DNA from: a plasmid | Length of the DNA stretch: 64,000 nucleotides | Strand: one strand, 5' to 3' | Sequence record: NZ_CP026049.1 | In this document: positions 3,480-56,984 of the stretch, one piece after another | Position numbering within the stretch: the first letter of the stretch is position 1 | Layout of the letters: each line of letters opens with the position of its first letter | Position numbers and translations under genes: made by a program | Notes under the pieces: generated by a model | What the model was told of the DNA's origin: nothing | Database searches by the model: none | Seen by the model: the letters and a program-made list of their open reading frames with translations, nothing else

Positions 3480-4838
3480 CTAGCGTTTCAGACTGGCTCG
3501 GAACTCTTCAGGATTAGCCAGTACGGGGTTGATGGCTCTGAGTTGCTCCTGAACCCGGGCTTGTGCACGTCGTTTGGGCATTTTTTTACTCCTATCTCGC
3601 TTTCCCTCTCGATCCAATTCATCCATCTTGTCCTGAGCCAGTTTCAGTACAGCACCGAGCCGTTTGTTATCAACGATTTGCCCCTGGTCGATGCATTCCA
3701 GTTTATCGAAGACCTGATAATTGAGTGATCGGTAGCCATATTTAAACGCCAGCGTACCATTTGGGTAGTCGTAAACTGTGATTTTTTCACCTGCAATTCT
3801 GGTATTTTCTTCCGTAGGTTCAACGAGATATATCATCTTATCGTAACGGAAAGTCAGTGTTTTCGAGAGTTTTCGTGATTCCTGCCAAGCAAAGATATCA
3901 TCCAGATCTTCAGAGCTTTCAAGCACCGGTCGATGCAGGTCTTTGGGATATTTTGCTGGTCTGGCAAAACGACGATTGAAGTCAATAATGAAGGAATCCA
4001 GCCAGGCATTGGCATCCTCGATGCTGCTGATGCCTTCAAGCCGCATTTCTTTGATAAGTCGATCCTGAAGAGTCTGGTTTGCGCGCTCAACGCGACCTTT
4101 AGCTTGCGGGCTGTTGGCGCATATCAACTCGATCCCCAGTTCGGAAAGCACCCGGCCGAACTGAGTGATTCCAGTTGTGGTAGTGCCACCATTATTGACC
4201 CTGAAAATGCCGTGCTTATCGCTGTAGAACGCCAGTGGTTTGCCATGCTGTTCAAGATACGCGCGGGTGGCCATCATGTAATCAAAGGCTGATTCAGTCT
4301 CGCCGAAACGGAGGTGCATCAGGCGCCCAGTAGCATCATCAATGAAGACGAGCAGGCAGCATTTGGGGGCACGTCCTTCAAACCAGTCATGCGGGGAACC
4401 ATCGATCTGAACAAGTTCTCCAAGGCAGTCACGCCGGTATCTGGGTTGATGAACACGTGGCCTGCGACGTGAGTATGGGACCCAGAGTCCATCAGCCGTC
4501 ATCCATTTTCTCAGTGTTTCAACAGACACCGTGATGTTATGGCGTTCGCGCAATTTTTCTGCGGCCAGCGTTGGTCCAAAGTCGCTGTAATGATCGTGAA
4601 GTAAAGAAAGTACACGCAGCTTCAGTGACTCAGGAAGTCTGTGATTACCGGGGCGTCCTCGTCGAAGGTTTGCCAGACCTGCAGCACCAGATTCACGAAA
4701 GCGGTTCATCAAACGCTGTGTCTGACGTTCGGTCAAAGCAAGCTGATGAGCAGCGTCGCGACGGCGCATGCGCTTTTCAACAACTGACTGAATGATGTTG
4801 ATCCGACTGAGTTCTTTATCTGACATGGTCACAAGCAT
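3480..4838 (-). CDS. DDE transposase (HTH + rve integrase core; ISNCY/IS481-like), 452 aa
   Basis: It has an N-terminal HTH (…LALTERQTQRLMNRF…) and an integrase core (…LVQIDGSPHDWFEGR…CANSPQAKGRVERANQTLQ…). Element ends were not determined. Confidence 0.7.
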   Translation of the reverse strand: MLVTMSDKELSRINIIQSVVEKRMRRRDAAHQLALTERQTQRLMNRFRESGAAGLANLRRGRPGNHRLPESLKLRVLSLLHDHYSDFGPTLAAEKLRERHNITVSVETLRKWMTADGLWVPYSRRRPRVHQPRYRRDCLGELVQIDGSPHDWFEGRAPKCCLLVFIDDATGRLMHLRFGETESAFDYMMATRAYLEQHGKPLAFYSDKHGIFRVNNGGTTTTGITQFGRVLSELGIELICANSPQAKGRVERANQTLQDRLIKEMRLEGISSIEDANAWLDSFIIDFNRRFARPAKYPKDLHRPVLESSEDLDDIFAWQESRKLSKTLTFRYDKMIYLVEPTEENTRIAGEKITVYDYPNGTLAFKYGYRSLNYQVFDKLECIDQGQIVDNKRLGAVLKLAQDKMDELDREGKRDRSKKMPKRRAQARVQEQLRAINPVLANPEEFRASLKR

Positions 4839-5037
4839 CCTGATGTCTCCATGGCCTGAGGATTGGATCCTTTATGCCAGAAAAAGTGACATCACTAAAT
4901 GGGTTAAAAGTGACATCAGAATATTGGAGTTACAATACAGGTGCGCATAACAAAGATTATGTTAAATATTAAAATAAATAGCATAAAAATCAATATGTTA
5001 AGACGGTAACCAGCTACTTTCCCATTCCAGCAACCAG

Positions 5038-5774
<737 letters not shown>

Positions 5775-6043
5775 ACACACCTCTCTTGTATAGCAATTGA
5801 TATACAAGAATAACACAACACGAACGTATAGCAAATGCTATACACTTCAAAGTACCGATAATGCGTTTTATGTTAAATATCAGTTAGTTACATGAATTTC
5901 ATGATGCCCAAAAATAAATTTCTCTAAAAGTTTCTTTTAGAGTCTGGAGGCCCTTCGGCCTAAATTTTTCTGCGGTAGTCTGGTTGTGGTGGCCAGCAAC
6001 AACTGTTGGTCAGTTGCAACTGAACTGAATTGGGATCATTGAT

Positions 6044-6725
6044 ATGATGGATGATGAAATAAGCAGCTCACCGCCCCTGTGGCGTAAAATCCTCCACGGC
6101 ATCCTGGATGACTTGCTAAATTCGCTGGGATATCCGGCCACATTGCGCCGTCGCCTAAACAACGGGATTTTGCCAGTGAGTCACCCGCAACTGCGGAACA
6201 CGTTCTGGCTGCGTTCCGTGGTTTGTTGGCAAACCTGGCTCGAATACGAAAAACACTGTATTCGCTACCTGCGTCTCGGCCACGACGGTGATTATGATTA
6301 CCTCCAGCGCCATATTCCTCAGCTGGATGGGCTGATAAACAGCGAGACCTCAGAAAGTTTTTGTTGTGATATTACGGCCGTTGGGGGACTGAGTGCATCG
6401 AGTGATTGTGACCAGGAGCTCTCCAGCCTGGATGCGTTTGCGCAGCAGTGTTGCCAGGAATTGGCAATACCACTGACCAGAGATCGGTTAAACCGTAATC
6501 TCAGCCACCACGGCTTACGGCTGTCAGAGATGGTATTCAGCCAGTTTACCTGGATGCCTGCCCGGCTTTACTGGAACAATGTCGACGGCGCCCACCATTT
6601 TGCAGCAGCCCGTTTCCTGGCAACACAGTTGAGTCAGCCGGTTTCTCTGACAGGCCAGTTGAACACCTATAGTATAAATCCGCAAAAAATACGGCAGCTG
6701 ACGGCGCAGTGGGATTTGTTCCTGG
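6044..6725 (+). pseudogene. hypothetical Cys-rich protein, 3' end removed by IS26
   Basis: The ORF runs straight into the IS26 left IR at 6726. The ORF-track C-terminus (…KVSDEAAF…) is translated IS26 sequence. The protein has three CC dipeptides. No family was recognised. Confidence 0.5.
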
Positions 6726-7545
6726 GGCACTGTTGCAAAGTTAGCGATGAGGCAGCCTTTTGTCTTATTCAAAGGCCTTACATTTCAAAAACTCTGCTTA
6801 CCAGGCGCATTTCGCCCAGGGGATCACCATAATAAAATGCTGAGGCCTGGCCTTTGCGTAGTGCACGCATCACCTCAATACCTTTGATGGTAGCGTAAGC
6901 CGTCTTCATGGATTTAAATCCCAGCGTGGCGCCGATTATCCGTTTCAGTTTGCCATGATCGCATTCAATCACGTTGTTCCGGTACTTAATCTGTCGGTGT
7001 TCAACGTCAGACGGGCACCGGCCTTCGCGTTTGAGCAGAGCAAGCGCGCGACCATAGGCGGGCGCTTTATCCGTGTTGATGAATCGCGGGATCTGCCACT
7101 TCTTCACGTTGTTGAGGATTTTACCCAGAAACCGGTATGCAGCTTTGCTGTTACGACGGGAGGAGAGATAAAAATCGACAGTGCGGCCCCGGCTGTCGAC
7201 GGCCCGGTACAGATACGCCCAGCGGCCATTGACCTTCACGTAGGTTTCATCCATGTGCCACGGGCAAAGATCGGAAGGGTTACGCCAGTACCAGCGCAGC
7301 CGTTTTTCCATTTCAGGCGCATAACGCTGAACCCAGCGGTAAATCGTGGAGTGATCGACATTCACTCCGCGTTCAGCCAGCATCTCCTGCAGCTCACGGT
7401 AACTGATGCCGTATTTGCAGTACCAGCGTACGGCCCACAGAATGATGTCACGCTGAAAATGCCGGCCTTTGAATGGGTTCATGTGCAGCTCCATCAGCAA
7501 AAGGGGATGATAAGTTTATCACCACCGACTATTTGCAACAGTGCC
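6726..7545 (-). mobile_element. IS26 (820 bp)
   Basis: The 14-bp terminal IRs are ggcactgttgcaaa at 6726-6739 and tttgcaacagtgcc at 7532-7545. No 8-bp target duplication flanks the element. Confidence 0.95.
6778..7482 (-). CDS. tnpA: IS26 transposase Tnp26 (234 aa)
   Basis: MNPFKGRHFQRDIILWAVRWYCKYGISYRELQEM… matches IS26/IS6-family Tnp. Confidence 0.95.
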   Translation of the reverse strand: MNPFKGRHFQRDIILWAVRWYCKYGISYRELQEMLAERGVNVDHSTIYRWVQRYAPEMEKRLRWYWRNPSDLCPWHMDETYVKVNGRWAYLYRAVDSRGRTVDFYLSSRRNSKAAYRFLGKILNNVKKWQIPRFINTDKAPAYGRALALLKREGRCPSDVEHRQIKYRNNVIECDHGKLKRIIGATLGFKSMKTAYATIKGIEVMRALRKGQASAFYYGDPLGEMRLVSRVFEM

Positions 7546-8194
7546 GTTTTTAATGACGAAGACCTGAAACCGGTACTGTCAACCTGACTATACCAGGCTG
7601 GCATTAAACACAAGGTAACGCTCACTGCAATAAGTGAGCGCAGTCCGTTATGAGCGAATAGCGGAAGTTCACAGTTTGACAAAGGTATGATTAAAATAGT
7701 GCCTTGTTCAACAACAGGGAACAGGTCAAGAGATATATTCAATTGTTATCCAGGAATTTTTCAAAATATTATATCGAACATCATCTTTTCTTGTTTTTTT
7801 TGTTGTTCATCGTTACAAGTGAATCGAGGGATGAAAGAAAAAAATATATTTATCAAAAACATAAATCTTTCTGAAATTGCTATCCCACCTCAGATTACTG
7901 GGCTGACCTAATCTATAGATCAAGTTCGCGTTATACTTTAATGTTAGCAAAATACTAAGATGATTCTTAGGGACGACCTCTTGACGGTAGAGGAAGCGTG
8001 CATTGATTTTTACAATCACTACCTTTCGCCCCCAACCTAATCCGCGAATGATGCTTTCTGTACTTGCGCGCCTGTTCTGATACTCGCCGCCAGAGCAATC
8101 AAATTGCTGATGCTTTCTGCCTGTTCAATGCGTCTCCTGTCGTCAGCACTACTGTGCATATTTGAGTGATTTCCTCTTAAGGAGAACTAGTTTC

Positions 8195-11100
8195 ATGGGT
8201 ATAAAAGCGCAGGTGAGTATCGCGCACAAGCTGGGGTTCACATCACACCAGAATGCAGTTCCGCTGTTACGTGAGCTCATCTTGCATAATGAGTCCGAAG
8301 AGACATTTCAGGATCTGACGCTGCATCTGCGGACCGCGCCAGCCGTGCTCGAAGATAAAAAATGGAATATCGACCGCCTGCTTCCCGGTACTTCACTGGA
8401 TATCAGGGATCGGGATGTCAAACTTAATGCCAAATGGCTCGCCGAACTGACCGAAAGCGTACTCTGCGAAGTCACCATAAGTTTGTGCCAGGGTGAGGAA
8501 GAAATCTTCATTACTCATTATTCGCTTGAGGCACTTGCGAAAAATGAATGGGGCGGCAGCGCAATGATTGAATTGCTCCCTTCATTTATCATTCCTAATG
8601 ATCCGGCGGTAGATCGTGTACTCAAGGCAGCCTCTGATGTCCTTCGCCGTGCAGGCAAGAATGACGCTCTTGATGGTTATGAAAGCAAGTCGAGAACTCG
8701 TGTCTGGGAAATTACCTCAGCTCTCTGGACTGCTGTCTGCAACCTCAATATCAGTTATGCCCTTCCCCCAGCCAGCTTTGAACGGAATGGCCAGAAAATT
8801 CGCACACCAGGCATCATTCTGGAAGGAAAAGTCGCGACCTGTCTGGATACAACCTTATTATTTGCTTCAGCACTGGAACAGATTGGTTTGAATTCACTGC
8901 TAATGCTCAGTGAAGGTCATGCGTTTGCTGGCGTCTGGTTACAACCACAGGAATTTTCGCAGCTAGTGACAGAAGACGTCTCTGCGGTGCGCAAACGTGT
9001 CGACCTAAAAGAAATGGTCGTATTTGAGACAACTCTCGCGACCAGAGCCCACCCGCCTTCATTTACTCAGGCATCTGATGAAGCGTTAAAGTATCTTAAC
9101 GAGGATGTTTTTCACGCAGCCATTGATTCGCGTCGCGCGCGGATGCAGAAAATTCGGCCACTGGCTCTGGGTGTCACTCGCCTTGAAGGACAGCCTGATG
9201 CTGAGGAGGTTATTTCTCATGGGTTTGAGGACGCTCCCTCTCTCCCTGATGTTGACATTGATATTGAAACAGCTGGCGAAAAAGAAGCTGGGGGCCGGCT
9301 TGTACAATGGCAACGAAAACTTCTGGACTTAACCACCCGTAACCGCCTGTTACACCTGCCTGAAAGCGCTAAAGGCATTCGTTTGATCTGTGCGAATCCT
9401 GGCCATCTTGAAGATAAGCTAGCTGAAGGCAAACGCATTCGCATTGTCCCGCTCCCTGATCTAGAGAGTGGAGGCCGCGATGCCGAACTTTATCAGCAGC
9501 TCACAAACGAGAACCTGCGGGAAGAATACGCCCAGATTGCGCTGGAACGCGGTGAAGTCGTCTCCGCAATGGAAAAATACCGCCTCGAGTCATCCCTAAT
9601 CGACCTCTATCGAAAATCGAAAAGTGATTTGGAGGAAGGTGGTGCCAACACTCTTTTCCTCGCTGTGGGCTTCCTTAAATGGAAAAAATCCGCTGATGAT
9701 CCCAAAAGTTACTCAGCTCCACTGATACTACTGCCGATTCAGCTTGACCGTAAAAGTGTACTTTCGGGCGTGTCCATGCGTTTGCTGGAAGAAGAGCCCC
9801 GCTTCAACCTTACTCTGCTTGAACTGCTACATAATGACTTTGCTCTGACAATTAACGGCCTCGATGGCGATCTGCCCACCGATGAAAGTGGTGTTGATGT
9901 GGATGGCATCTGGAATATGGTACGGCGTGCTGTGCGCGACATACCCGGTTTCGAAGTCACCCGTGATGTCGTGATTGGCACATTCTCTTTTGCCAAATAT
10001 CTGATGTGGAAAGATCTAATCGATCGGGCACCTCAGTTGATGCAAAGTGCGCTGGTAAAGTATCTCATCGAACGCGGCCAGGACAATGCCGTTCTGGATA
10101 AGAGCGGAGAAGTCATCAACGTTGAGGAACTCGATGACAACGTCAATACGCAGGATCTTTTCCTACCGCTGCCTGCAGATTCCTCGCAAATCGCCGCCGT
10201 TGTAGCCTCTGCAAAAGGGAGGGATTTTGTTCTGGATGGCCCCCCCGGTACCGGTAAGTCGCAAACCATAGCCAATATGATCGCGCATAATCTTGCGCTG
10301 GGAAGGCGCGTACTTTTTGTTGCTGAGAAGAAAGCGGCACTGGATGTGGTCTATCGCAGGCTTGAGGCTCAGGGACTCGGTGAATTTTGTCTGGAACTGC
10401 ACTCGAGCAAAACGTCCAAGATGGATTTTCTGAAACAGCTAGAGCGGGCATGGGATGCGCGTGATCTACTGACTACCTCGGAGTGGAAGGAAGAAGCGGC
10501 CAAGGTGCAGCACCTGCGAGACAAACTCAATGAGGTTGTCCGTTTGCTCCATCTGCGCTGGCCAAATGGCTTAACGCTCCATCAGGCAATGGGCACGGTT
10601 ATCAGGGATGCAAGTAGCGCCACGCCGCACTTTAGCTGGCCTGCATCGACTTTGCATTCTTCTTCAGAGATGACTCAGTTCAGAGAGATAGTAAAACGTC
10701 TGGAGCTGAACCGTGATACCTGGAAACAGCACGGCGATCATTTTGACCTCATCACGCAGGCTGACTGGACCAATGGGTGGCAGTCTTCTCTCATTGCTGC
10801 AGCAAATTCATTGCCTGCAATCATCGATCACCTTGAAAACGCCACCGAGGAATTACTGAAGGCGACGGGAGTTACTCTGGACTCTACTGAGCCCGAGAGA
10901 CTGTCGCAACTAACTTCATTCTGTGAATTATTGACGGAAGCTTACGGCATTGATCTGAATTTCATGTTCGCACCGGATGCCACAAGCCGTATAGAGTCAG
11001 CGAATAAAGCCGTTCACCTCCTGAAAGAGATTGAAGTGACAAAGGCTAATCTGTCAGTTACCTACCCTGGTAACAGCTGGCAGTACGTTAATGCTCCGCA

Positions 11101-14086
11101 GATCAGAAACGTACTTGACGTCGCTGACAAAAAATTCTGGTTCTTTGCGACCAGTGCCCGCAAGAAAGTCATTGGTGAAGTTATCCGACAATACTCGCTA
11201 ACGTCAGCTCCCGACTTATCCGTTGATCTCCCCATTGCTGAAACTCTGCAGACATTGCTGCAACGTCTGACCGAGCTTAACTCTGTCACTTTATCCCTGC
11301 CGGGATGGGCTGGGCTGGATACCAACGTTGCACAGTTGCAGACCACCCTGGAACTTGCAGAATCTATCCGCAATTCGCTTGGTGGTTTTGCTTCTTCGCC
11401 ACAGCAGTTGGTCGAGATCCGCACTGCTGTAAAAAATCTGATTATTGATGCCAATGACCTTCTCGGTTCGCAGGGTGTTATCTCCGCCCTGACTCGGAAA
11501 CTGCGCACAGCAATCGCCAATTTCAATGATGCACAGGTTAGCTTCTGCAATCTGATAAAACCAGCTGAGGACAAACCATCGCTCCCGGCACTGCGTGACT
11601 GCGCACTCAATATCCTGCAACATCAGTCTGCTCTTAAAGCCTGGAGTGACTGGAGCCGTGTACGTGAGGAAGCGATTTCACATGGCCTGCAGCCAGTGAT
11701 CAACGCGCTGATCCATCTTAACTCAGGAGAAATAAGCGCTGCAGAGATTTTTGAAACTGCCTATTGCCGCTGGTTTGCATCGTGGATGATCGATTCAGAG
11801 CCGCTGCTGCACAATTTTGTGCCGGCTGAGCACATGAGTGATATTGAGGCTTACCGTGCTCAAACCGATCGTCTGGCCAAACTGACAGTACGCTATATCC
11901 GTGCTCGTTTATGTGGCGTCATTCCTGCAAAAAATGAGGTCAGCAAGCAGAGTGGTTTTGCACTGCTTAAACATGAACTACAGAAATCCCGTCGTCATAA
12001 ACCGGTACGCCAGATGGCAGCCGAAATGGGCGATGCCATGGCCAAACTTGCCCCCTGCATGCTGATGAGTCCGCTTTCAGTCGCCCAGTTCCTGCCCTCC
12101 GACCAAGCCTTGTTTGATCTGGTGATTTTCGATGAGGCATCACAGATTGCCCCGTGGGATGCTATCGGCACCATGGCGCGTGGCAAACAGGTGGTAATCG
12201 CCGGTGATCCCCGCCAGATGCCGCCAACCAGCTTCTTTAATCGTGCAGCTAATGACACGGACGATGATACTGAAGAAGATATGGAAAGCATTCTGGATGA
12301 GTGTCTTGCTGCCGGCCTGTATAACCACAGCCTGAGCTGGCATTACCGGAGCCGTCATGAAAGCCTGATTACCTTCTCCAACCATCGCTACTATGACAGC
12401 AACCTGATTACGTTCCCCGCTTCCGAAACAAAGCAAAGTGCTGTCCAGTGGTGCAAGGTTACAGGCGTCTACTCTAAAGGGAAAGGACGTCATAATCAGG
12501 TCGAGGCAGAAGCGATCGTCGCTGAAACGGTGAAGCGACTGACTGATAAAGAGTTCGTTGCATCAGGCAGATCGATAGGCATTATCACGCTGAATACTGA
12601 ACAGCAAAAGCTAGTCAGCGATCTGCTGGACCGTGCCAGACAGCATCACCCTGAAATTGAACCCTTCTTCCAGTCTGAACTGGAAGAACCTGTTGTGGTT
12701 AAAAACCTCGAAACGGTTCAGGGGGATGAACGCGATTTGATCATAATTAGCATCGGGTACGGCCCGACTGAGCCGGGCGCAAATACAATGTCGATGAATT
12801 TTGGCCCGCTTAATCGCGAGGGAGGCTGGCGCCGGCTGAATGTTGCCGTCACACGTGCGCGACAGGAAATGATGGTCTTCAGCTCGTTCGATCCTTCCTT
12901 CATCGACCTTAATCGGACCAGCGCCCGCGCGGTTGCTGACCTCAAACACTTTATTGAGTTTGCCCAGCGCGGCCCTGAAGCTCTTTCTCAGGCAGTACGT
13001 GGGTCTGTAGGCGGTTATGACTCACCGTTTGAAGAGGCAGTAGCAAATGGTCTGAGGAGAAAAGGCTGGCATGTTGTCCCGCAAATTGGCGTATCCCGTT
13101 TCCGTATTGATTTGGGGATCGTTCATCCGGATAAGCCTGGCGACTATCTTGTCGGTGTTGAATGTGACGGTGCCACTTACCATAGCGCAGCAACAGCACG
13201 CGATCGCGATAAAGTCCGCAGCGCTATCCTACAGGGCCTGGGCTGGAAATTACTGCGCCTCTGGTCAACTGAATGGTGGATTGATAAAGAAGGTGCACTC
13301 GACAGGCTGGATACAGCAATAAATCGCCTGCTGGAGGAATCCAGAGCAGCGGAAGCCGCACTGATTGCTGAAGCAGAAAAACAAAAGCAGATTACGCCAG
13401 TCATCGGTCACGTAACCAATGATGCCAGTGAAGACATACTGGTATCTGAAATTACACCTGTCGCTAATGATGAAGAAATATCCACGTCAGTAAACCCTAT
13501 CATCACGCCTCCCGCCGAAGTAAGCGAAGATGATGGTGGCACTGAGTTGAAGTATGCATCTACAGCTTCTCAGAATAACAACAAGCCAGCGCATGCCGGT
13601 AAGTATGTCGTTAACGATCTTCAGGAATGGCACGACAGGACAGATGCAGAACAATTCTATATCGCTGAATATGATGAGACACTTAAAACCCTCATTGAAG
13701 CGGTGGTAACAAGTGAATCACCCGTTCTGGATACAACGCTTGTGCAACGCATCGCACGTATACACGGCTTCACTCGCGCTGGCAGACTGATACGTGAACG
13801 CGTAATGGAAATTGTGGATCAACACTATCACCTTGCAGCCGATCACTCAGGTGAAAACTTCGTCTGGCTGTCCGCTGAGCAACGTGCTGACTGGAATGCG
13901 TTTCGTTTGCCTGCCACGGATAACGACATTCGCCAGGTTGACGCGATCCCTAGTGAGGAATTGCGCGCACTGGCGCTGAGTATTAAAGGTGACAATAAGA
14001 TACAGGAAATGACCCGCTCGCTTGGAATTAAGCGCCTGACCAGTCAGGCAAAAAAAAGGATTGAATCAATACTTAATGTTGTTTGA
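8195..14086 (+). CDS. giant multidomain protein (1963 aa): transglutaminase-like N-domain + DUF4011 + SF1 helicase (AAA_11/AAA_12) + Vsr/DUF559-like nuclease + DUF3320. It is an Hhe-like candidate defence protein.
   Basis: An SD aaggag sits 10 nt before the ATG at 8195. Walker A GPPGTGKS is at 10238-10261. Walker B VIFDEASQI is at 12122-12148, and VIAGDPRQMPP is at 12191-12226. LETVQGDERDLIIIS (helicase motif V/VI region) follows. VGVECDGATYH, a Vsr/DUF559-type PD-(D/E)xK motif, is at 13151-13183. The C-terminus (LVQRIARIHGFTRAGRLIRERV…) is DUF3320-like. The N-terminal block …GKVATCLDTTLLFASAL…EGHAFAGVW looks like a transglutaminase Cys/His core. Confidence 0.85.
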   Translation: MGIKAQVSIAHKLGFTSHQNAVPLLRELILHNESEETFQDLTLHLRTAPAVLEDKKWNIDRLLPGTSLDIRDRDVKLNAKWLAELTESVLCEVTISLCQGEEEIFITHYSLEALAKNEWGGSAMIELLPSFIIPNDPAVDRVLKAASDVLRRAGKNDALDGYESKSRTRVWEITSALWTAVCNLNISYALPPASFERNGQKIRTPGIILEGKVATCLDTTLLFASALEQIGLNSLLMLSEGHAFAGVWLQPQEFSQLVTEDVSAVRKRVDLKEMVVFETTLATRAHPPSFTQASDEALKYLNEDVFHAAIDSRRARMQKIRPLALGVTRLEGQPDAEEVISHGFEDAPSLPDVDIDIETAGEKEAGGRLVQWQRKLLDLTTRNRLLHLPESAKGIRLICANPGHLEDKLAEGKRIRIVPLPDLESGGRDAELYQQLTNENLREEYAQIALERGEVVSAMEKYRLESSLIDLYRKSKSDLEEGGANTLFLAVGFLKWKKSADDPKSYSAPLILLPIQLDRKSVLSGVSMRLLEEEPRFNLTLLELLHNDFALTINGLDGDLPTDESGVDVDGIWNMVRRAVRDIPGFEVTRDVVIGTFSFAKYLMWKDLIDRAPQLMQSALVKYLIERGQDNAVLDKSGEVINVEELDDNVNTQDLFLPLPADSSQIAAVVASAKGRDFVLDGPPGTGKSQTIANMIAHNLALGRRVLFVAEKKAALDVVYRRLEAQGLGEFCLELHSSKTSKMDFLKQLERAWDARDLLTTSEWKEEAAKVQHLRDKLNEVVRLLHLRWPNGLTLHQAMGTVIRDASSATPHFSWPASTLHSSSEMTQFREIVKRLELNRDTWKQHGDHFDLITQADWTNGWQSSLIAAANSLPAIIDHLENATEELLKATGVTLDSTEPERLSQLTSFCELLTEAYGIDLNFMFAPDATSRIESANKAVHLLKEIEVTKANLSVTYPGNSWQYVNAPQIRNVLDVADKKFWFFATSARKKVIGEVIRQYSLTSAPDLSVDLPIAETLQTLLQRLTELNSVTLSLPGWAGLDTNVAQLQTTLELAESIRNSLGGFASSPQQLVEIRTAVKNLIIDANDLLGSQGVISALTRKLRTAIANFNDAQVSFCNLIKPAEDKPSLPALRDCALNILQHQSALKAWSDWSRVREEAISHGLQPVINALIHLNSGEISAAEIFETAYCRWFASWMIDSEPLLHNFVPAEHMSDIEAYRAQTDRLAKLTVRYIRARLCGVIPAKNEVSKQSGFALLKHELQKSRRHKPVRQMAAEMGDAMAKLAPCMLMSPLSVAQFLPSDQALFDLVIFDEASQIAPWDAIGTMARGKQVVIAGDPRQMPPTSFFNRAANDTDDDTEEDMESILDECLAAGLYNHSLSWHYRSRHESLITFSNHRYYDSNLITFPASETKQSAVQWCKVTGVYSKGKGRHNQVEAEAIVAETVKRLTDKEFVASGRSIGIITLNTEQQKLVSDLLDRARQHHPEIEPFFQSELEEPVVVKNLETVQGDERDLIIISIGYGPTEPGANTMSMNFGPLNREGGWRRLNVAVTRARQEMMVFSSFDPSFIDLNRTSARAVADLKHFIEFAQRGPEALSQAVRGSVGGYDSPFEEAVANGLRRKGWHVVPQIGVSRFRIDLGIVHPDKPGDYLVGVECDGATYHSAATARDRDKVRSAILQGLGWKLLRLWSTEWWIDKEGALDRLDTAINRLLEESRAAEAALIAEAEKQKQITPVIGHVTNDASEDILVSEITPVANDEEISTSVNPIITPPAEVSEDDGGTELKYASTASQNNNKPAHAGKYVVNDLQEWHDRTDAEQFYIAEYDETLKTLIEAVVTSESPVLDTTLVQRIARIHGFTRAGRLIRERVMEIVDQHYHLAADHSGENFVWLSAEQRADWNAFRLPATDNDIRQVDAIPSEELRALALSIKGDNKIQEMTRSLGIKRLTSQAKKRIESILNVV

Positions 14087-15476: not shown

Positions 15477-16349
15477 TTATATGGGCTCGGGGTACGGCGC
15501 CAGGCGGGTATAGTTATTGCCCCGGGATATCAGCATTCGTTCCGTCACACGTCGCTCCACCTCACGCTTCAGCGCGTCATGATCGCCTCTGAAGCGGCCG
15601 GTGGCATATTCACGGGTCAGCTGCTGACGAACGCGCGTCTCTATATCCTTACGCTGGCGTGAAGCATCCCGGCGAGCTGTCGCTCGCTTCTGGCCATGTG
15701 ATTTACGCTCAGCCTGGTAGCTACGAAAACGCTCGCGTACAAAACGCCAGGATTTAGCGATCAGCTCGTCCATTTCCAGTTGTGGCAGGCTCTGCTTTTT
15801 ACGCTGTTTGTTTTCCCACTCCACACGGCTACGACGCGCGGCCACGACAGCGACATCTGACACATCCAGAGCCTGAAAAAGAGCCGGCGTGAACGTCATG
15901 TCGGTCGGGATGTTACAGCCAATCTGCGGGTCATATTCCGTGGTGTAGGTGATCAGGCCCAACTCGGACATAAAGCGCAGCGCACGGGTCGCCCGCGAGA
16001 TAGAGAGATTGCCACTTGCGGATTCCGTGGCCAGCCCGCACTCGATGGCCATATTGGTAATCGAGCGCTGCACGCGATTGGCCAGCGGATCATAATGGAA
16101 GCACATTGCCTGCAGGAGCGCGTCAATTGCACGTCGACGCAGTATAGGAGGCATGCGGCGGCGCTTACCCAGTGAGCGGGCAAAGGCAACATGGATTGAA
16201 AAATCAAAGGTAGCGGTGAAGCCTTCGGCTTTGGCCATCAGCTTACGACAGAACGGCAGTGTCTTTTTGCCTTCACGCGCCATATAACGCGGCTCGGCAT
16301 TTTTAACCTGAACGTAATGAAATGAGTTTTCTGAATTCTGGTCAGCCAC
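15477..16349 (-). CDS. repA1: IncFII replication initiation protein RepA1 (290 aa)
   Basis: Its central and C-terminal regions strongly recall R100/R1 RepA1 (…[32 protein letters not shown]…WENKQRKKQ…). The N-terminus is divergent. Confidence 0.95.
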
Positions 16350-16628
16350 CGCTTCCTGCGCTTATGTTGCACGGAAGGAGTGAGCACAGAAGGTCTTGAA
16401 CTTTTCTGAGCATGAATCTATACTCCCTGCATAGAGCAACAGCTTCTATGCAGTTTTGAAAGGCCCCGTTAATCTTTTCGCTCCGCCAAGAATGAAGAAG
16501 ATTATCGGGGTTTTTGCTTTTCTGGTTCCAGGTAAATTCCCCATCCGAACCAGTTCCCTGCCACCTTGCGGCGTGGCCAGCCAGAAATCTCTAAACGATC
16601 AGTAATCTAGCACTCAAAGCCGGATGGA
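16350..16628. promoter_or_regulatory. repA1 upstream control region (tap leader peptide and copA antisense RNA expected here)
   Basis: This is the gap between repA2 and repA1. In IncFII replicons it carries the copA/copT target, the tap leader ORF and the repA1 promoter. It is not delimited at nucleotide level. Confidence 0.45.
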
Positions 16629-47624: not shown

Positions 47625-50600
47625 TCAGTCGCCCCCGAGCGTTTTCTCACGATTGAGATCACGAACCATATCGCGCTCCATCTGCTGCAGGCGCTCCCGC
47701 TGAAGGCTCTCCTGAGCCACCTGCTGAACGGCCGCTTCCTGTTTCCGGGTCTGTGGATCGTCGGGCAGGGTCATCTTCTCTTCACCCGGTTTTTCGCGCT
47801 CCAGACCGCGAATGACGTCTCCGATGACCTCTTTTACCCGGTCTTCAGATTCGCCGGCTTTACGCCCGTCCCCGGCCACTTCCCGGGCAGTCTGTTCCGC
47901 CTGTTTCTCCATATTCTGACGCTGCGCCTCTTCCGCGGCCCGCTGTGCCAGCACTTCTGGCGGAAGCGGAATGTCAGTTCCTGCCGCCTCCGGTGAAACT
48001 ACCGGTATCGGATCTGCCCAGACGCGTCCGCCGGTGATGGCGCCCGGATTCCAGGGGCGGTCATCGCCAGCAAGGCGCACTACCACGCCGCTGTCAGGGT
48101 TATCGCGGGCGACCCTGACGCCCTCTCCCATATTCCCGGCCAGCAGGCTCTCGCCGTTCCGGCTCCCCTGCAGCGCCACAAAGCGGGCATCTTCATTGCC
48201 CATCACCCGTCCCACGCCCCCCATCACCTGCAGGCGGCCGTCGCTGTCCGTCAGCGAACTGAGCCAGATCCCGGCTTCTTTCCCGTTCTTGTCATACACC
48301 GGCAGCGCCACGTGGGGCTGCGGATACTGTTTTCCGGGCGAAATGAATTTTCCGGGCGATATCCCCTTCGCAAGGCCGGACTGCTGCAGCGCCGCGCGGC
48401 CTGCCGCGGTTTCATTCATCGGTCGCGCACGGCTGAACAGCTGCTCCGCAGTGTGTACCGCCCGGTCATTACGCGGCGCAAGAATATCGTGCGCCGTCGC
48501 TTTCGAGGGCGAGGCATTAATTGCTTTTATCCAGCCCTCCCGGCTGTCGGTATAGACCTGAACATGCTGTTTCATACGCGATAACCCGACATAGGCGGAT
48601 TCGAAGCTGGCCATCGCTTTTCGGCCCTCCGCCACGCCCTCCAGCGCGATGGCAAACGGTTCACTGGCCCCCTGGGCCCCGTGAGCGGTAATGGCATACG
48701 CCAGATCGATATGGCGTTGCGCCTCGTCGGCCTTCGGGTTCAGTGTCCGGGAGGTTTTGCCGTCCGAAAACGTGACACTGTCACCTGAGACGGATTTTAC
48801 CTCCCACACGCTGTTGGCCACATAGCCGCGCTCCGGGTCACTTTTGCTGAAGCGCATTCGGTCCCCCTCAGACACGGTGATATCTTCCCGGCGATAGAGC
48901 GTCACGCCTTCTGCCGATGCCTCCCGGGGTGAGATAAATCGCTCCTTTCCTTCACTGTCTGTCAGGGTGATCAGCTGATTATCCTTATCCACTTTGCTGA
49001 TACGGTGGTATACGTTATCAACCAGCGCCACCGCCTCCTTGTGAGCCGTCCAGGTCGACAGTCTGCGCAGTTCACCGTCACGGATGTTACTCGTGACCAG
49101 CACCGGCAGGGTGATTTCCTCTTTGCCGGTTTCCCCGTTCTCCCGCCGAGCGTCATGGATCAGACCGTTCAGCGCCCGCCGGTCCTTATTCAGATGGGTG
49201 ATCACCAGCGTCTGCGACTGTGCCTCCGGGGTGCGACCAGCGTAGTCCTTCACCAGAGCCTCGTAGAGCGTCGCGGGCTGACCTGCCGGCACGCTTTCGC
49301 CTTTCTTCAGTGCCTCCTGAATCGCCTTCTCCTGTGCCCGCGTGAATTCCACCACAGAACTGCCCGGCGCCCAGGCGCCTTCTTTTCTCGGCACTTGCTC
49401 CGGCGTGACCTGCTCAATGGTGGTCAGGGCGCGGTGCACATCCCGGTCAATCAGGCTGTAGACTGCCGGTCGCAGCTCAGGTACCTGGCGCACAATCTCT
49501 TTCATGATGGCCACATCCGCGGCGCTGCGCTGCTGCATCAGCCTGAACGGCTGCCCCGGCGAAATGGACTGCAGCTGGTCGGTATCCCCGCTGGACACTG
49601 CGCGACCTCCCCCGGCCGCAATAAGGCTCAGGGCTTTCGCCTTGTCTGACAACCCCACCATCGAACTCTCATCGATCAGAAACAGCGTGTTGCTGAAATC
49701 GGGTGTCTGCCCGTTGCGCAGCAGCAGCAGCAGCAGCAGCGTGTCGTGGAGGAACGACGCCGTCGTCCGCGCGTCCACGCCGGCGCTCTGCATTTCCCCG
49801 ACCGCGCGATGTGTCGGCGCCAGACCGATGACGCGCGGGCGGGTCTCTTCCGGCAGCAGACTGATGGCACTCGTGACAGCCCGGAACTGGGTGGTTTTCC
49901 CCACCCCGGCATACCCCTGAACCACCGTGAACCGGTCCGGGGTTTCCAGAATCATCCGGGTCGACGCCCGCTGTCCGGCGGTCAGGCCCGTCATCAGACT
50001 GGCCGGCACGCGGTCCATCAGGGGGGCCACCGCGTCTTTGCCTTCAAGTACCCGGGTCAGGATGCTTTTCTCGGCATCCCAGGTCTGCCTGGATATCAGC
50101 AGGTCGTTGCCGTGGCCAGAAGAGACGCTCACATTCAGCAACTGCCCCGACCTGATTTGTGCCTGAATGGTCGTGTCGATATCCGCCATCGATACCTTAC
50201 CGCCCCCGGTTTCCAGCGCCGTGGCCAGCAACTGTGGCCGGGTAAACGTCAGGTCATCGCTTTCCAGCAGGGGAACGGAAAGGTGGATGGCCTGCTCTGC
50301 CGGGGTATGCAGCCCGGCCTTCTGCTGTGCGATGGCCGCATCGAGGTCTGTCTCTCCGGAACGGGCCTTCAACTGCTCCGACACCACGCTGAACGCGGTA
50401 TGTCGCGCCAGCTTCTCCATCGTGCGCGCCGCATCCTGCGCGGAGTACAGCCGGAGGTGACTTCCGCTCTGCGCCAGCTGGTTGAGTGTGGCGTTATCCA
50501 GCTCACGCTGCGTCACAGACGCAAAAACCGTTGCCGTCTCGCTGACCGACCTGCCGGGACTTTCCACCCAGCCGTGCCCGACCTCGATACCGTCGAACGG

Positions 50601-52895
50601 GCTGCTGCCGACAGAAAGCGACTGGGTGGTTTTCTGCCCGGGGCGCTGCACCGTCAGCTGCCCGTCCCCGGATTTGAGCACGGTGATGCTCTCACCACCC
50701 TTCAGCCGTGTATCGGGGATTTTTCCCAGCACGGCCAGACGCTCCCCTTCCGCCACCGGCAGTTTATCGGCCCGGAACAACGTCCACTGGCTGTCGACGG
50801 CGGAAACTTTCATATCCAGGCGCTCCCCTTCTTTGTCCTTCAGGGTCAGCATGTTGCTGCTGGCGGTCACCCGGTCAATGACAAAGCGGTCATGCTTCCG
50901 GGTCTCCGGGTCCCACCGCTCCATCACCATCCCTTCGCGGTAATAGTCCCGCACGCCCCGGCTTTTGCTGTCCAGCCACACCGGCGTCAGGGCGGTGACC
51001 GTCATCTCCTTCTCTCCGAGCACACCTTCATTTTTGAGGGTGTCGCGGATAACGCTGTTGAGCACATTCTGTTCACGCGTCCCGCTGATTTGCGCCACGC
51101 TTTCCTGTCCCTCACGCACGCTGGCGGCAAATTCCTGCGCCAGCAGGCTGTAGCGTGCCCCTTTGTCCGGCTCACTGATGATGTCTGCCGTCACCTGATG
51201 TCCACCCTGCCAGCGGTAGGTATTGACGCCGCTGTCCTTCAGAACCGTCAGCGCACTCCCCGTCCCGCTGCGTTTGCCGCTGTCAGAAAGCAGAACCTGA
51301 ACGTTATGGCGCATCGCGCCGTCGAGCAGGGAAATTGTCTCTTTCAGGCTCAGCTTCTCCGCCTGGTCAACGATAAGCGTCCCCCCCGGGATAAACGCGG
51401 TCCCGTCCTGCAGGGCGGATTTACCGGTCACCGTCTCCCCGGCCAGCCGCGCATCCCCGGCGAGAAAATCACGGGAGCGGTTATCAGCAGCAAGAATATG
51501 TACGTCGCGTCCCTGCTCCCGGGCCATGAGGGTCAGCTCGGCCACCCGCTCCCGCTGACCTGCCGCGCCACCCTGCCCGGAGACAATCCCCATCGCCGGC
51601 CGGTCCTGAGCCAGTACGCTGACCGCATCGCTGAAGGGGGCCTGACGGACAACAGACGCATCCGGCGTGACAGAGACGTGGTTCTGGCGCTGAACCTCCT
51701 GGCTCAGCGCTTTCACGGAGAGCTCATCCAGCACGTGGATATTCGAGGTGAAGAGACCTTTTTCCCGGTCAAGAGGAATAAGCTGCTCGCGCTCGATCGC
51801 CGCATCGATACCCGTTCTGGCCTGCTCAAACACACCGGGTTTTGCTTCCAGCTGGCTGACTGTGCGGGCCAGCAGGTCGGCGTAGGTGAACTGCACCTTC
51901 CGGTCGCTGAGACCGGCAATGGCTTTCGTGACCACGTCGCTGATATCAGGGCCGTCCGTTTTCACCGGACTGACTGGCGCACTGGCGAGCTCTGCTGCGC
52001 GCTTATCGGCATCCTCGCGGTAGCTGCGCATATCAAACCCGGTCTCCTTCATCGTGTTCATCCATTCCACCATCTTCTCGGCCGGATCGATGGCTGCTTT
52101 GGATTTGCGGGTATCGAGGGCGGCCACATCCCGTGACTTCAGAGAAGCGTCAGGACCCGCAGCCTCCCTGACCTCCTGAGTGCGTGTGGAAAACGGCTCG
52201 ACCGGAACCTCGTTCATCTCCCACATGCCGTGTTTGCCCACGACTTCGGTTTTGTAGCCAAGTATCTCAACGAGAGGTTTGAGCTCCTCCCGGTAGATTT
52301 TCCCGAAGGCTATCTGGTTCGCGTACACATTCTCGATAAAGCCCGTTTTCCCGACTGTATCAGTGCCAAGAGACTGCCACTTGTCCCCGTTCTGCGTCGC
52401 ATTCATGACGACGGCGTGAGTGTGCAACTGGGGCTCCTCGTTACGGTTCGTGTCGTGGGTGAATTTCGCCACAATAAGGTTACCGGTCAGCACAGTTTCG
52501 CTTTTTCCATCGGTCATCACGCGGGTGGCGGCCAGCGTTTCCACCTGCTGCAGCGCTTTTGTCACCGCCTGGTTATGGGCGTCAATAAGTCTTTTGTCTC
52601 CCCCCAACATCGCCATCACTGAGACACTTTTGGGCGCCGAAAAGGTCAGATCGTAGCCCGGGCGGTGCTTGTTGGTGCCGTCCTGCATCCGGGTCAGGTC
52701 GCTGCCGTCCGGCAGCTTTCCTTTCAGAATCTCTGTGAACACGGCCTTGTCGACCGGCTTCCCTTCCAGACCCAGTGCCTCAGCCCCTTTTCCCTGCCAG
52801 CGCTCATCCATGCTGCCGATAACGTAATAGTTATCCTTGTCCGTATAGTAGTTACCGGCGCTGCCCGCCGATTTTACGGAGCCAATCGACATCAT
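47625..52895 (-). CDS. traI: conjugative relaxase/helicase TraI (1756 aa)
   Basis: The N-terminal relaxase has Tyr motif NYYTDKDNYY and His motif HDTNRNEEPQLHTHAVV. RecD-like helicase domains follow. The length equals F TraI. Confidence 0.95.
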   Translation of the reverse strand: MMSIGSVKSAGSAGNYYTDKDNYYVIGSMDERWQGKGAEALGLEGKPVDKAVFTEILKGKLPDGSDLTRMQDGTNKHRPGYDLTFSAPKSVSVMAMLGGDKRLIDAHNQAVTKALQQVETLAATRVMTDGKSETVLTGNLIVAKFTHDTNRNEEPQLHTHAVVMNATQNGDKWQSLGTDTVGKTGFIENVYANQIAFGKIYREELKPLVEILGYKTEVVGKHGMWEMNEVPVEPFSTRTQEVREAAGPDASLKSRDVAALDTRKSKAAIDPAEKMVEWMNTMKETGFDMRSYREDADKRAAELASAPVSPVKTDGPDISDVVTKAIAGLSDRKVQFTYADLLARTVSQLEAKPGVFEQARTGIDAAIEREQLIPLDREKGLFTSNIHVLDELSVKALSQEVQRQNHVSVTPDASVVRQAPFSDAVSVLAQDRPAMGIVSGQGGAAGQRERVAELTLMAREQGRDVHILAADNRSRDFLAGDARLAGETVTGKSALQDGTAFIPGGTLIVDQAEKLSLKETISLLDGAMRHNVQVLLSDSGKRSGTGSALTVLKDSGVNTYRWQGGHQVTADIISEPDKGARYSLLAQEFAASVREGQESVAQISGTREQNVLNSVIRDTLKNEGVLGEKEMTVTALTPVWLDSKSRGVRDYYREGMVMERWDPETRKHDRFVIDRVTASSNMLTLKDKEGERLDMKVSAVDSQWTLFRADKLPVAEGERLAVLGKIPDTRLKGGESITVLKSGDGQLTVQRPGQKTTQSLSVGSSPFDGIEVGHGWVESPGRSVSETATVFASVTQRELDNATLNQLAQSGSHLRLYSAQDAARTMEKLARHTAFSVVSEQLKARSGETDLDAAIAQQKAGLHTPAEQAIHLSVPLLESDDLTFTRPQLLATALETGGGKVSMADIDTTIQAQIRSGQLLNVSVSSGHGNDLLISRQTWDAEKSILTRVLEGKDAVAPLMDRVPASLMTGLTAGQRASTRMILETPDRFTVVQGYAGVGKTTQFRAVTSAISLLPEETRPRVIGLAPTHRAVGEMQSAGVDARTTASFLHDTLLLLLLLRNGQTPDFSNTLFLIDESSMVGLSDKAKALSLIAAGGGRAVSSGDTDQLQSISPGQPFRLMQQRSAADVAIMKEIVRQVPELRPAVYSLIDRDVHRALTTIEQVTPEQVPRKEGAWAPGSSVVEFTRAQEKAIQEALKKGESVPAGQPATLYEALVKDYAGRTPEAQSQTLVITHLNKDRRALNGLIHDARRENGETGKEEITLPVLVTSNIRDGELRRLSTWTAHKEAVALVDNVYHRISKVDKDNQLITLTDSEGKERFISPREASAEGVTLYRREDITVSEGDRMRFSKSDPERGYVANSVWEVKSVSGDSVTFSDGKTSRTLNPKADEAQRHIDLAYAITAHGAQGASEPFAIALEGVAEGRKAMASFESAYVGLSRMKQHVQVYTDSREGWIKAINASPSKATAHDILAPRNDRAVHTAEQLFSRARPMNETAAGRAALQQSGLAKGISPGKFISPGKQYPQPHVALPVYDKNGKEAGIWLSSLTDSDGRLQVMGGVGRVMGNEDARFVALQGSRNGESLLAGNMGEGVRVARDNPDSGVVVRLAGDDRPWNPGAITGGRVWADPIPVVSPEAAGTDIPLPPEVLAQRAAEEAQRQNMEKQAEQTAREVAGDGRKAGESEDRVKEVIGDVIRGLEREKPGEEKMTLPDDPQTRKQEAAVQQVAQESLQRERLQQMERDMVRDLNREKTLGGD
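49719..49739. repeat. (CAG)7 trinucleotide tract inside traI, encoding Leu7 on the coding strand
   Basis: gcgcagcagcagcagcagcagcagcgtg yields …FLHDTLLLLLLLRNGQTPDF… at the position where F TraI has …DTRLQQRSGETPDF…. Confidence 0.8.
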
Positions 52896-55225: not shown

Positions 55226-55418
55226 AATCATTGCCCTTAAATACAAAGCGAAGAAATATTCCGGCAGCAGCCGGCAACGCCTCGCAGGCGCACAAATAAA
55301 TTGCGCACCTGTTCACCGTTCTGGAGGGTTAAACCTGATACAAAATGAATGAAAGCTGACTGGCAGGAAGACGTTCTGTCAGCATGGCCCGGAGTGTCCG
55401 GGCCCGGGAATGATTAAA

Positions 55419-56150
55419 CTACAGAATATTAGCGACGGATTTTGCCAGCTGGTCTTCAAGAACCGGCTGGGCTTCCGGGAATTTCAGATTCACTTTATTG
55501 GCGTTAGAGACAACACGTGTCTGGTATTTATGCTGATTACCGGTTTCAGTGCTGGTCTGCACTTTAGCCCCGGAGGTCCCTTGTCGTAATACCGCGACGT
55601 TATCCGTCTGCACCTGCGTTTTCGCGCGCTCTGAAATCTGCACATCGGTGATCATCGTGTAATTCACGTCTTCCACCATTGCGTCAGCCGCCATACCGAC
55701 CAGACCTGCCGCCAGGCCGACACCGAGAGTCGCGCCTGCTGAACTGGAGTTATAGGCGGTGATCCCCGCACCCAGTGCGCCCGCGGTTGCTGCACCTTCA
55801 TAACCCCGACTTAACCAGCCCTGGGTTTCACGAAGATCCATCTTGTCGGCCTTCAGGACATTCGCCTGTATCCAGTAGCCCGCCGTATCAGGATTGCTGA
55901 CTACCTGATAGCCCTTAGCAGTGACCGCACTGGTAATTTTAGACTGGAGCCCGCTCATGTCTTTATCGGAGGTATTTTTTATTTGCAGATAAACTGTCTT
56001 ATTATTTGACGGTTCAAGCCAGATTGTTTCGCTCATCTGGGTTTTGACTTCCAGATTACGCTTTTTAATTGCGGTCCCCATTGCACTACAACCCGAAAGT
56101 ACCAGTGCAGAACTGACGACCATCACAGCCATGACTTTATTAAGTTTCAT
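55419..56150 (-). CDS. traT: surface exclusion/serum resistance lipoprotein TraT
   Basis: [21 protein letters not shown]… has a lipobox and near-identity to F TraT over the mature protein. Confidence 0.95.
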
Positions 56151-56344
56151 CCTGAATCCTTGTGACATAATCAATATGAATGATACACGCTCTCTTTTAT
56201 TAAAAAGCGCGCGTTTACTATAACGAAATTTTAAAAGAAAGGGAGCAGGGAACTACAAATACAACAATCAATAATAATCAAACAAAAACTTCAGCCTATG
56301 AATAGGCTACTAAATTTGATAGTCAATAACATTTAAATAAGTTG

Positions 56345-56959: not shown

Positions 56960-56984
56960 AGCTTACCTCCTAAACCTTCCATCC

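Follow-up and report, generated by a model that had tools for sequence, protein, structure and literature searches.

A ProA family protein with an N-terminal transglutaminase-fold module encoded beside an IncFII replicon

The plasmid sequence record NZ_CP026049.1 contains, within a stretch of 64,000 nucleotides that was analysed here as a whole (the window; positions are counted from its first letter), a single very large gene (8195–14086, plus strand) that lies between an IS26 element and an IncFII replicon. A previous reading of this stretch, made from the sequence alone, considered the product to be a candidate Hhe-like immunity or maintenance module with a possible transglutaminase-like N-terminal domain. 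The locus accordingly raises three questions, namely to which family this protein belongs, what its N-terminal region is, and whether it acts in defence, in plasmid biology or in routine DNA metabolism. The analysis described below assigns the protein to the ProA family, and we consider it likely that it is a full-length, apparently functional member of that family, a stand-alone anti-phage protein to which Hhe and the candidate system PDC-S37 are sisters.

Family membership and domain architecture

The product of the gene is identical to WP_004118855.1 (100% tblastn match). The reading frame comprises 1963 codons plus the stop codon, starts with an ATG and has zero internal stops according to the open reading frame (ORF) list and the translation; this ATG is also the start assigned by RefSeq in identical plasmids, and a Shine-Dalgarno sequence read directly from the DNA, AGGAG (8180–8184, plus strand), is located 10 nt 5′ of it. 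The description of the gene as one uninterrupted 5.9-kb ORF with a good Shine-Dalgarno sequence is thus confirmed.

Comparison with curated profiles places the protein in the ProA family. Its residues 15–1947 match positions 2–1903 of the 1903 positions of the NCBIfam equivalog NF058533.1, “anti-phage protein ProA”, with a score of 2223.8 bits (cutoff, 1500 bits), whereas the Hhe equivalog NF042953.1 is matched in three separate stretches with 825.4 bits, below its cutoff of 2000 bits. A reference Hhe protein (PGAP-labelled, from a Klebsiella IncFIB plasmid) gives the reverse result, 2735 bits on Hhe and 1131 on ProA. Five of five distant members, from Enterobacter, Pseudomonas, Verrucomicrobia and an actinobacterial metagenome-assembled genome, pass the ProA cutoff (2081–2201 bits) and display the same domain order. 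In PADLOC, the best model is the candidate PDC-S37 (PDLC05009; 1180.8 bits, residues 368–1961 against positions 9–1531 of 1550), which comes without a curated cutoff and whose profile starts at DUF4011, leaving the N-terminal module of ProA outside; the PADLOC model of Hhe (PDLC02194) is second with 600.6 bits. A “DUF3320” protein encoded on a Ralstonia megaplasmid that lacks the N-terminal module scores 1799 bits on PDC-S37 and a borderline 1519.8 on ProA, and aligns with ProA residues 375–1944.

The alignment with the Klebsiella Hhe delineates what is shared. The identity is 38% over residues 1141–1702 and 31% over residues 464–878 of the window protein and is confined to DUF4011, the helicase motor and the nuclease. 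Residue 4 of Hhe aligns with ProA residue 355, and DUF4011 begins in Hhe at about residue 30; a transglutaminase module and DUF3320 are both missing from this protein. The glutamate E1656 in the VECDG motif of the window protein aligns with the Glu of the Hhe motif IECDG and appears to be the equivalent of the experimentally tested Hhe residue E1731, provided that the numbering of the tested Escherichia coli Hhe corresponds to that of the Klebsiella protein. Judging by these profile and alignment comparisons, the window protein is a member of the ProA family and not of Hhe. The general idea of a single-gene, Hhe-like immunity candidate in the sequence-only reading holds; the membership in Hhe does not, the closest PADLOC model being PDC-S37.

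The domains, all encoded on the plus strand, follow each other in the order that had been predicted from motifs, and the Pfam scan yielded significant matches to DUF4011, AAA_11, AAA_12 and DUF559. The protein starts with an all-beta immunoglobulin (Ig)-like sandwich domain (residues 1–115, positions 8195–8539) and a domain of the transglutaminase/papain-like fold (residues 116–320, 8540–9154), which are discussed in the next section. DUF4011 (residues 375–545, 9317–9829) is matched over the full profile, positions 1–158, with an E-value of 2.2e-43. The RecA-like domain 1 of the superfamily 1 (SF1) helicase is represented by its first part, which includes the Walker A motif GPPGTGKS at residues 682–689 (residues 663–750, 10181–10444; AAA_30/AAA_19 matches at residues 663–724). 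The helicase core is then split by a long, weakly conserved insertion (residues 751–1260, 10445–11974) that has no Pfam match, such that the Walker A and Walker B motifs are 628 residues apart. The rest of the core (residues 1262–1563, 11978–12883) matches the C-terminal part of AAA_11 (residues 1268–1346) and AAA_12 (residues 1365–1563) and contains the motifs VIFDEASQ (1310–1317, with DEASQ at 1313–1317), GDPRQMPP (1337–1344), QGDERD (1509–1514) and VTRAR (1552–1556). In a search of the Protein Data Bank (PDB) sequences, the first part of the helicase matches Upf1, IGHMBP2 and Nam7, and the remainder matches IGHMBP2, Sen1 and Dna2; for the full protein, this search returned generic Upf1/Sen1/Dna2 motor matches only and no solved structure of ProA or Hhe.

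The helicase is followed by a Vsr-family MTES_1575/DUF559 endonuclease of the PD-(D/E)xK type (residues 1612–1709, 13028–13321; PF18741, 1.9e-34, with an overlapping PF04480/DUF559 match at residues 1655–1708), in which the motifs FRIDLG and VECDG occupy residues 1636–1641 and 1655–1659. An acidic, low-complexity, variable linker (residues 1710–1819, 13322–13651) connects the nuclease to the C-terminal part of the protein (residues 1820–1963, 13652–14083), which consists of DUF3320 (residues 1820–1868; PF11784, 1.8e-12) and a tail. The DUF3320 region has been described as winged helix-turn-helix (wHTH) DNA-binding modules (PMC3710099).

To assess conservation, 67 full-length proteins with 44–76% identity in the N-terminal module were aligned with MAFFT. 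In this alignment, C216, H242, E278 and T279 of the N-terminal module, G682, K688, S689, D1313, E1314, Q1317, G1337, D1338, Q1341 and R1385 of the motor, and R1637, D1639, E1656, D1658 and H1663 of the nuclease are invariant. The mean column conservation is about 0.8 in the motor and the nuclease and 0.71–0.76 in the transglutaminase domain, and drops to 0.37–0.60 in the insertion 751–1260 and to 0.14–0.37 in the linker 1710–1819. These patterns indicate that three catalytic centres are under purifying selection.

Several family members depart from the complete layout. A short form of ProA of approximately 1,710–1,760 residues, seen in eight of the loci analysed, ends just past the nuclease and lacks the linker and DUF3320; it matches positions 2–1720 of the 1903-position ProA profile and yet scores above the cutoff (2081 bits for one of these proteins, L013). 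In one variant of 2336 residues (P0219), the sandwich and transglutaminase module is preceded by a fused RNase_T/DEDD 3′-5′ exonuclease (residues 14–158), and six other proteins have N-terminal extensions of 100–165 residues that received no domain assignment.

The N-terminal module

What, then, is the region that precedes DUF4011? Sequence profiles give little indication: residues 1–370 searched alone against Pfam produce a chance match to LpqN only, the window protein has no match to the Pfam transglutaminase-like models, and a search of PDB sequences with a 62-sequence profile of the module found nothing. Relatives are nevertheless numerous, 271 being returned by a homology search with residues 1–370, and in an alignment of 62 of these relatives C216, D218, H242 and E278 are invariant. 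Weak, sub-threshold matches to two Pfam families recur among these homologues, PF04473 in 28 of the 62 (best E-value 0.0012) and PF01841 in 9 of the 62 (best E-value 0.012).

The AlphaFold2 model obtained with the 62-sequence alignment has a predicted local distance difference test score (pLDDT) of 93.4 and consists of an all-beta sandwich (residues 1–115, pLDDT >93) and an alpha/beta domain (residues 120–320). When this two-domain model was used for a fold search, Ig-like sandwiches dominated the matches (HAP2, GH2 domains and the sandwich domains of TG2/FXIII), although TG2, FXIII, protein 4.2, PNGase and DRC7 were returned as well. Because the Ig-like sandwich confounds these matches, residues 116–330 were modelled alone (pLDDT 93.7). 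The domain-only search retrieved 3kd4, a putative protease (BDI_1141), PNGase, the bacterial transglutaminase TglA, PeiW and LapG, together with Rad4/XPC, TG2/TG3/FXIII and arylamine N-acetyltransferases. In the model, Cys216, within the TCLD motif (residues 215–218), is at the N-terminus of the helix 216–229, and His242, within the GHAF motif (residues 241–244), starts the strand 242–248, which is the arrangement seen in active enzymes of the papain and transglutaminase folds.

Given the fold search, the invariant Cys and His, and the recurrent weak Pfam matches in homologues, the region from about residue 120 to 320 is, at the level of the predicted structure, a transglutaminase-like fold. 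The transglutaminase-like core suspected by the sequence-only reading is upheld as a fold, its Cys and His proved invariant across homologues, and modelling did retrieve transglutaminase and cysteine protease folds. A preserved active site formed by Cys216, His242 and Glu278 (codons 8840–8842, 8918–8920 and 9026–9028, plus strand) is strongly suggested, with Glu278 proposed as the third residue of the candidate triad by analogy between the motifs GHAF...FETT and GHAW...DPT.

It is possible, and we propose it tentatively, that the Cys216-His242-Glu278 domain is an active protein-modifying enzyme (a peptidase, deamidase or transamidase) that perhaps serves as a sensor or switch; for example, it may cleave or cross-link a phage protein, or process the variable linker of ProA itself and thereby license the helicase-nuclease. 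If true, one polypeptide would link an activity directed at proteins to an effector directed at DNA; in the literature searched, no documentation of this mode of action was found for Hhe-type systems.

Distribution, proposed function and alternative explanations

A protein identical to that of the window, WP_004118855.1, is found on 337 contigs, and in PLSDB the gene is carried with at least 99.7% nucleotide identity by 17 plasmids from Klebsiella, Raoultella and Enterobacter. The N-terminal module was detected in at least 579 of approximately 185,000 species genomes (about 0.3% or more), among them Pseudomonadota, Verrucomicrobiota, Bacteroidota, Acidobacteriota, Gemmatimonadota, Actinomycetota and others. 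It is represented in 3,536 clusters at 50% identity, 850 of these at E<=1e-30, and is almost always N-terminal in proteins of 1,700–2,400 residues. No homologue, near or distant at the nucleotide level, was found in 5,426 complete E. coli genomes, and phage genomes are practically devoid of the family (3 of 50,697 records). The gene in MT836269.1 (5445–11300), an 11,434-bp “Bacteriophage sp.” contig from human faeces, is ProA-like, 34% identical and takes up half of the contig; the contig could be a bacterial fragment that was mis-binned, or else the gene is a rare copy carried by a phage.

Among the best 80 loci, 66 contain the gene as one complete ORF with a length of 1,700 residues or more (maximum 2,437), 8 are truncated and the rest are cut by contig ends. 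The truncated frames span 335–1080 residues, and some are accompanied by downstream fragments, as in Enterobacter hormaechei (602 residues). Such frames, found in 8 of the 80 loci, suggest recurrent pseudogenisation of proA. In two IncFIB/IncFII plasmids of K. pneumoniae, CP094888.1 (at about 4400–6800 of the extracted locus, L086) and CP095469.1, the IS21-family element ISEc10 (istAB) is inserted about 2.2 kb into an otherwise identical proA; the gene is destroyed by this insertion and no coding sequence is annotated there.

The homologues are mostly chromosomal and reside in unrelated contexts. All-against-all clustering of the ORFs within 6 kb revealed no family present in more than 8 of the 80 loci and hence no conserved partner, and when the 148 nearest ORFs were scanned with PADLOC and Pfam, no family occurred in more than 3. 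Sporadic defence neighbours include Hachiman, Lamassu, type I restriction-modification, GmrSD and PDC candidates. Methyltransferases were seen neither in the flanks of the gene in the plasmid lineage of the window nor as recurrent neighbours of the 80 homologous loci. With no conserved neighbour, proA is a stand-alone gene, and its place beside a replicon is incidental.

Hhe itself is far commoner than ProA on Klebsiella plasmids: 244 plasmid records match ProA by tblastn, and most of these, among the matches listed, show about 35% identity and are labelled hhe. The genuine hhe on Klebsiella IncFIB plasmids is located directly downstream of two DUF262 (GmrSD-like) genes and forms a small defence cluster with them (NZ_AP018754.1; 1–3151 of locus L005). 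In Pseudomonas aeruginosa, a large DUF4011 gene is reported to be a conserved core gene that flanks the defence hotspot cDHS1 in every isolate (PMC10250203). Many of the closest chromosomal homologues of ProA belong to other Pseudomonas species.

For the likely role of ProA in phage defence, the following mechanism can be proposed. The Upf1/Dna2-like SF1 helicase, preceded by DUF4011 and split by the variable insertion of about 500 residues, would load onto and translocate along invading or aberrantly replicating DNA in an ATP-driven manner; the C-terminal wHTH (DUF3320) modules would aid DNA binding, and the Vsr-type endonuclease would be the DNA-cutting effector. As there is no methyltransferase or partner gene, the discrimination would be modification-independent, and its probable trigger would be activities of phage DNA metabolism, in line with what has been reported for Hhe. 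The Ig-like sandwich and the transglutaminase-fold domain at the N-terminus would form a catalytically competent module, most likely a regulator of the peptidase, amidase or transamidase type, a sensor or a second effector. We infer DNA as the target, and any role of the transglutaminase-like domain. Hhe defends against lambda, T3, T7 and PhiV-1, and the nuclease mutation E1731A abolishes the defence (10.1101/2022.06.16.496414). The apparent triggers of Hhe are T7 DNA-metabolism genes, the co-expression of which is toxic (10.1101/2024.10.10.617714). The anti-phage phenotype of the window protein is presumed by analogy, from the curated name of the family and from the homology with Hhe.

Several points weigh against this interpretation. 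The association with defence islands is weak, the nearest neighbours being mostly housekeeping-type genes. The third residue of the putative triad is Glu, whereas the canonical one is Asp. No promoter was identified, and promoter and terminator scans gave matches not above the shuffled expectation. A primary experimental paper on ProA or PDC-S37 was not found in the literature searched, so that the anti-phage label relies on the NCBI curated name and on the 31–38% identity to Hhe, in the motor and nuclease only.

A role in plasmid maintenance, plasmid competition or entry exclusion, tied to the IncFII replicon, would be in keeping with the distance of only about 1.4 kb between the gene and the repA/oriR region in this plasmid lineage, and there are known examples of helicase-nuclease systems with plasmids as their target. 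However, the linkage is lineage-specific, given that hipBA and umuDC are downstream of the gene in one plasmid and a Tn3-family element intervenes in pOSUMEAT1; the homologues, present in at least 579 species, have unrelated neighbours and for the most part reside on chromosomes; and the copies disrupted by insertion sequences persist on otherwise intact plasmids, which implies that the gene is not needed for maintenance. A function of this kind is therefore improbable, and the maintenance role suggested by the sequence-only reading gained no support from the largely chromosomal distribution, the unrelated contexts and the lack of a conserved neighbour. Slightly less credible still is a housekeeping helicase-nuclease of DNA repair or replication (Dna2- or AddAB-like) that happens to sit on a plasmid. 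The similarity of the motor to Upf1, IGHMBP2, Sen1 and Dna2, the relationship of the nuclease to the Vsr repair endonucleases, the DUF4011 core gene at the P. aeruginosa hotspot (PMC10250203) and the mostly non-defence neighbours of family members all speak for it, but the sporadic spread (at or above roughly 0.3% of species, with no case among the 5,426 E. coli genomes), the horizontal movement on conjugative plasmids and the frequent pseudogenisation (8 of 80 truncated loci, in addition to the insertions) do not fit such a gene. Moreover, related forms add toxin-type nuclease domains, HEPN and the DEDD exonuclease, and both NCBIfam and PADLOC curate the family as defence.

The two remaining alternatives concern the termini. 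That the protein is simply an Hhe with extra, non-essential ends could be argued from the shared order of DUF4011, split SF1 helicase and MTES_1575 nuclease, from the identity with Hhe and from the PADLOC Hhe score of 600 bits; the opposite score patterns of the window protein and a true Hhe, the start of Hhe at DUF4011 and its lack of both terminal modules contradict this, and the invariant catalytic residues of the N-terminal module indicate that it is not a dispensable decoration. We regard this option as highly implausible, and membership in Hhe is ruled out by the model cutoffs and the architecture. More serious, though still unlikely, is the proposal that the domain of transglutaminase fold has no catalytic function and serves as a scaffold or as a DNA- or protein-binding module, like Rad4/XPC or DRC7, which were among the fold matches, so that the protein would have two enzymatic activities only. 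Invariance or near invariance of Cys216, His242, Glu278, Thr279 and Asp218 among the 67 proteins would be unexpected for a decayed site; the modelled placement of Cys216 at a helix N-terminus and of His242 at the start of a beta-strand is that of active enzymes, and the best fold matches include such enzymes (the putative protease 3kd4, PNGase, TglA, PeiW and LapG).

The annotation of the gene should be reconsidered. The plasmid records searched still label it “DUF3320 domain-containing protein” or “DNA helicase”, whereas the appropriate reading is that of a defence gene of the ProA type, carried by conjugative IncF plasmids in Klebsiella, Raoultella and Enterobacter. Carbapenemase genes are also present on some of these plasmids; when a defence gene is located on a plasmid, resistance to phages can spread along with resistance to drugs, which is relevant to phage therapy in these hosts. 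The central question is the role of an invariant cysteine peptidase-like domain in a helicase-nuclease immune protein, along with the trigger, and it applies to the whole family of thousands of proteins rather than to the window copy in particular. The plasmid copy of the window is a convenient allele for the study of the N-terminal domain, being intact and naturally mobile.

Plasmid surroundings and comparison with known systems

On the left, the segment that is common to other plasmids is bounded by IS26 (6726–7545, minus strand, 820 bp), with exact 14-bp inverted repeats at 6726–6739 and 7532–7545 and an ORF at 6778–7500 (minus strand); the element is annotated as IS26 in matching records and is of interest only as context, as is the adjoining remnant (7546–7658, plus strand; 113 bp), which stems from the 3′ end of an IS110-family element and is 99% identical to the IS110-family end in a related locus (L004). 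In related plasmids, an intact IS110-family transposase gene is located upstream of proA. Since IS26 abuts the remnant of an element that is intact in relatives, it deleted the rest of this element and whatever lay further upstream. The non-coding region between the remnant and the gene (7659–8194, plus strand) is AT-rich at about 7700–7950, is 100% identical in other plasmids and travels with the gene in the plasmid lineage. The leader of about 35% GC noted earlier is indeed GC-poor (0.374 over 7500–7999), but the first 113 bp after IS26 are the IS110 remnant. A conserved regulatory element of the family in this AT-rich leader was considered and rejected, for the upstream similarity to a 76%-identical Enterobacter orthologue begins 32 bp before the ATG, and the AT-rich region is not common to both. 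An Rfam scan of 6.5–17.5 kb detected the CopA RNA of the replicon only and nothing in the leader.

Downstream of proA are the IncFII repA ORF (15477–16349, minus strand) and a CopA-like antisense RNA (16431–16519, plus strand; Rfam RF00042, 78 bits against a gathering score of 60). These features and the exact IS26 repeats bear out the description of the gene as flanked by IS26 on one side and by the IncFII replicon on the other. Within the plasmid lineage the downstream neighbour varies, being IncFII repA, a Tn3-family element (in pOSUMEAT1, between the gene and repA) or hipBA/umuDC. Further along the window (47625–61177, minus strand), large ORFs of 1756, 783, 940 and 456 residues resemble in size and order those of the F-type TraI, TraD, TraG and related proteins; as related plasmids are typed as MOBF/MPF_F conjugative, the window probably includes a transfer region.

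The combination of a transglutaminase-like peptidase with an SF1 helicase, a Vsr nuclease and wHTH modules was described from comparative genomics by Anantharaman et al. (2013; PMC3710099), who reported it in giant proteins that additionally contain HEPN and in which the DNase is that of MTES_1575 and the wHTH modules overlap DUF3320. These proteins are not accompanied by modification genes and were predicted to act in modification-independent restriction; it was proposed that the wHTH modules recognise invading DNA directly and that protein cleavage by the transglutaminase constitutes a further defence (PMC3710099). The three-activity polypeptide considered by the sequence-only reading is thus not a novelty, because both the architecture and the same logic had been published; likewise, the family is already curated as anti-phage (ProA) and is already a PADLOC candidate.

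As to the fold of its N-terminal domain, the window protein shares with the superfamily of transglutaminase-like and papain-like cysteine peptidases a predicted alpha+beta fold; it differs in that its similarity to them falls below the Pfam thresholds, the Cys-His spacing is short (26 residues) and Glu278 takes the place of Asp. As to entire systems, the match to the ProA family (NF058533.1) is full-length, and no difference is detectable at the sequence level. PDC-S37 has DUF4011, the helicase, the Vsr nuclease and DUF3320 in common with the window protein, but both its profile and the Ralstonia example start at DUF4011, so that they lack the module of about 350 residues formed by the Ig-like and transglutaminase-fold domains. 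Hhe (Gao et al., 2020) is likewise a single-gene system; it has DUF4011, the split SF1 helicase and the MTES_1575/Vsr nuclease with its ECDG motif in common with the window protein, and it is also found on Klebsiella IncF plasmids. It has neither the N-terminal sandwich/transglutaminase module nor DUF3320, ends shortly after the nuclease and has a longer helicase insertion (about 930 residues compared to 630 in the window protein). Taken together, these comparisons point to three related single-gene families, in which Hhe is the core, PDC-S37 the core with DUF3320, and ProA the sandwich/transglutaminase module, the core and DUF3320. The giants of the MTES_1575 type share with ProA the transglutaminase domain, the SF1 helicase, the MTES_1575 Vsr endonuclease, the DUF3320 wHTH and the lack of a modification subunit. 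In the actinobacterial giants of this type, which possess two wHTH modules, the N-terminus is occupied by a HEPN RNase, a domain with no Pfam match in the window protein (either the whole sequence or residues 1–370), in which the all-beta sandwich is found instead.

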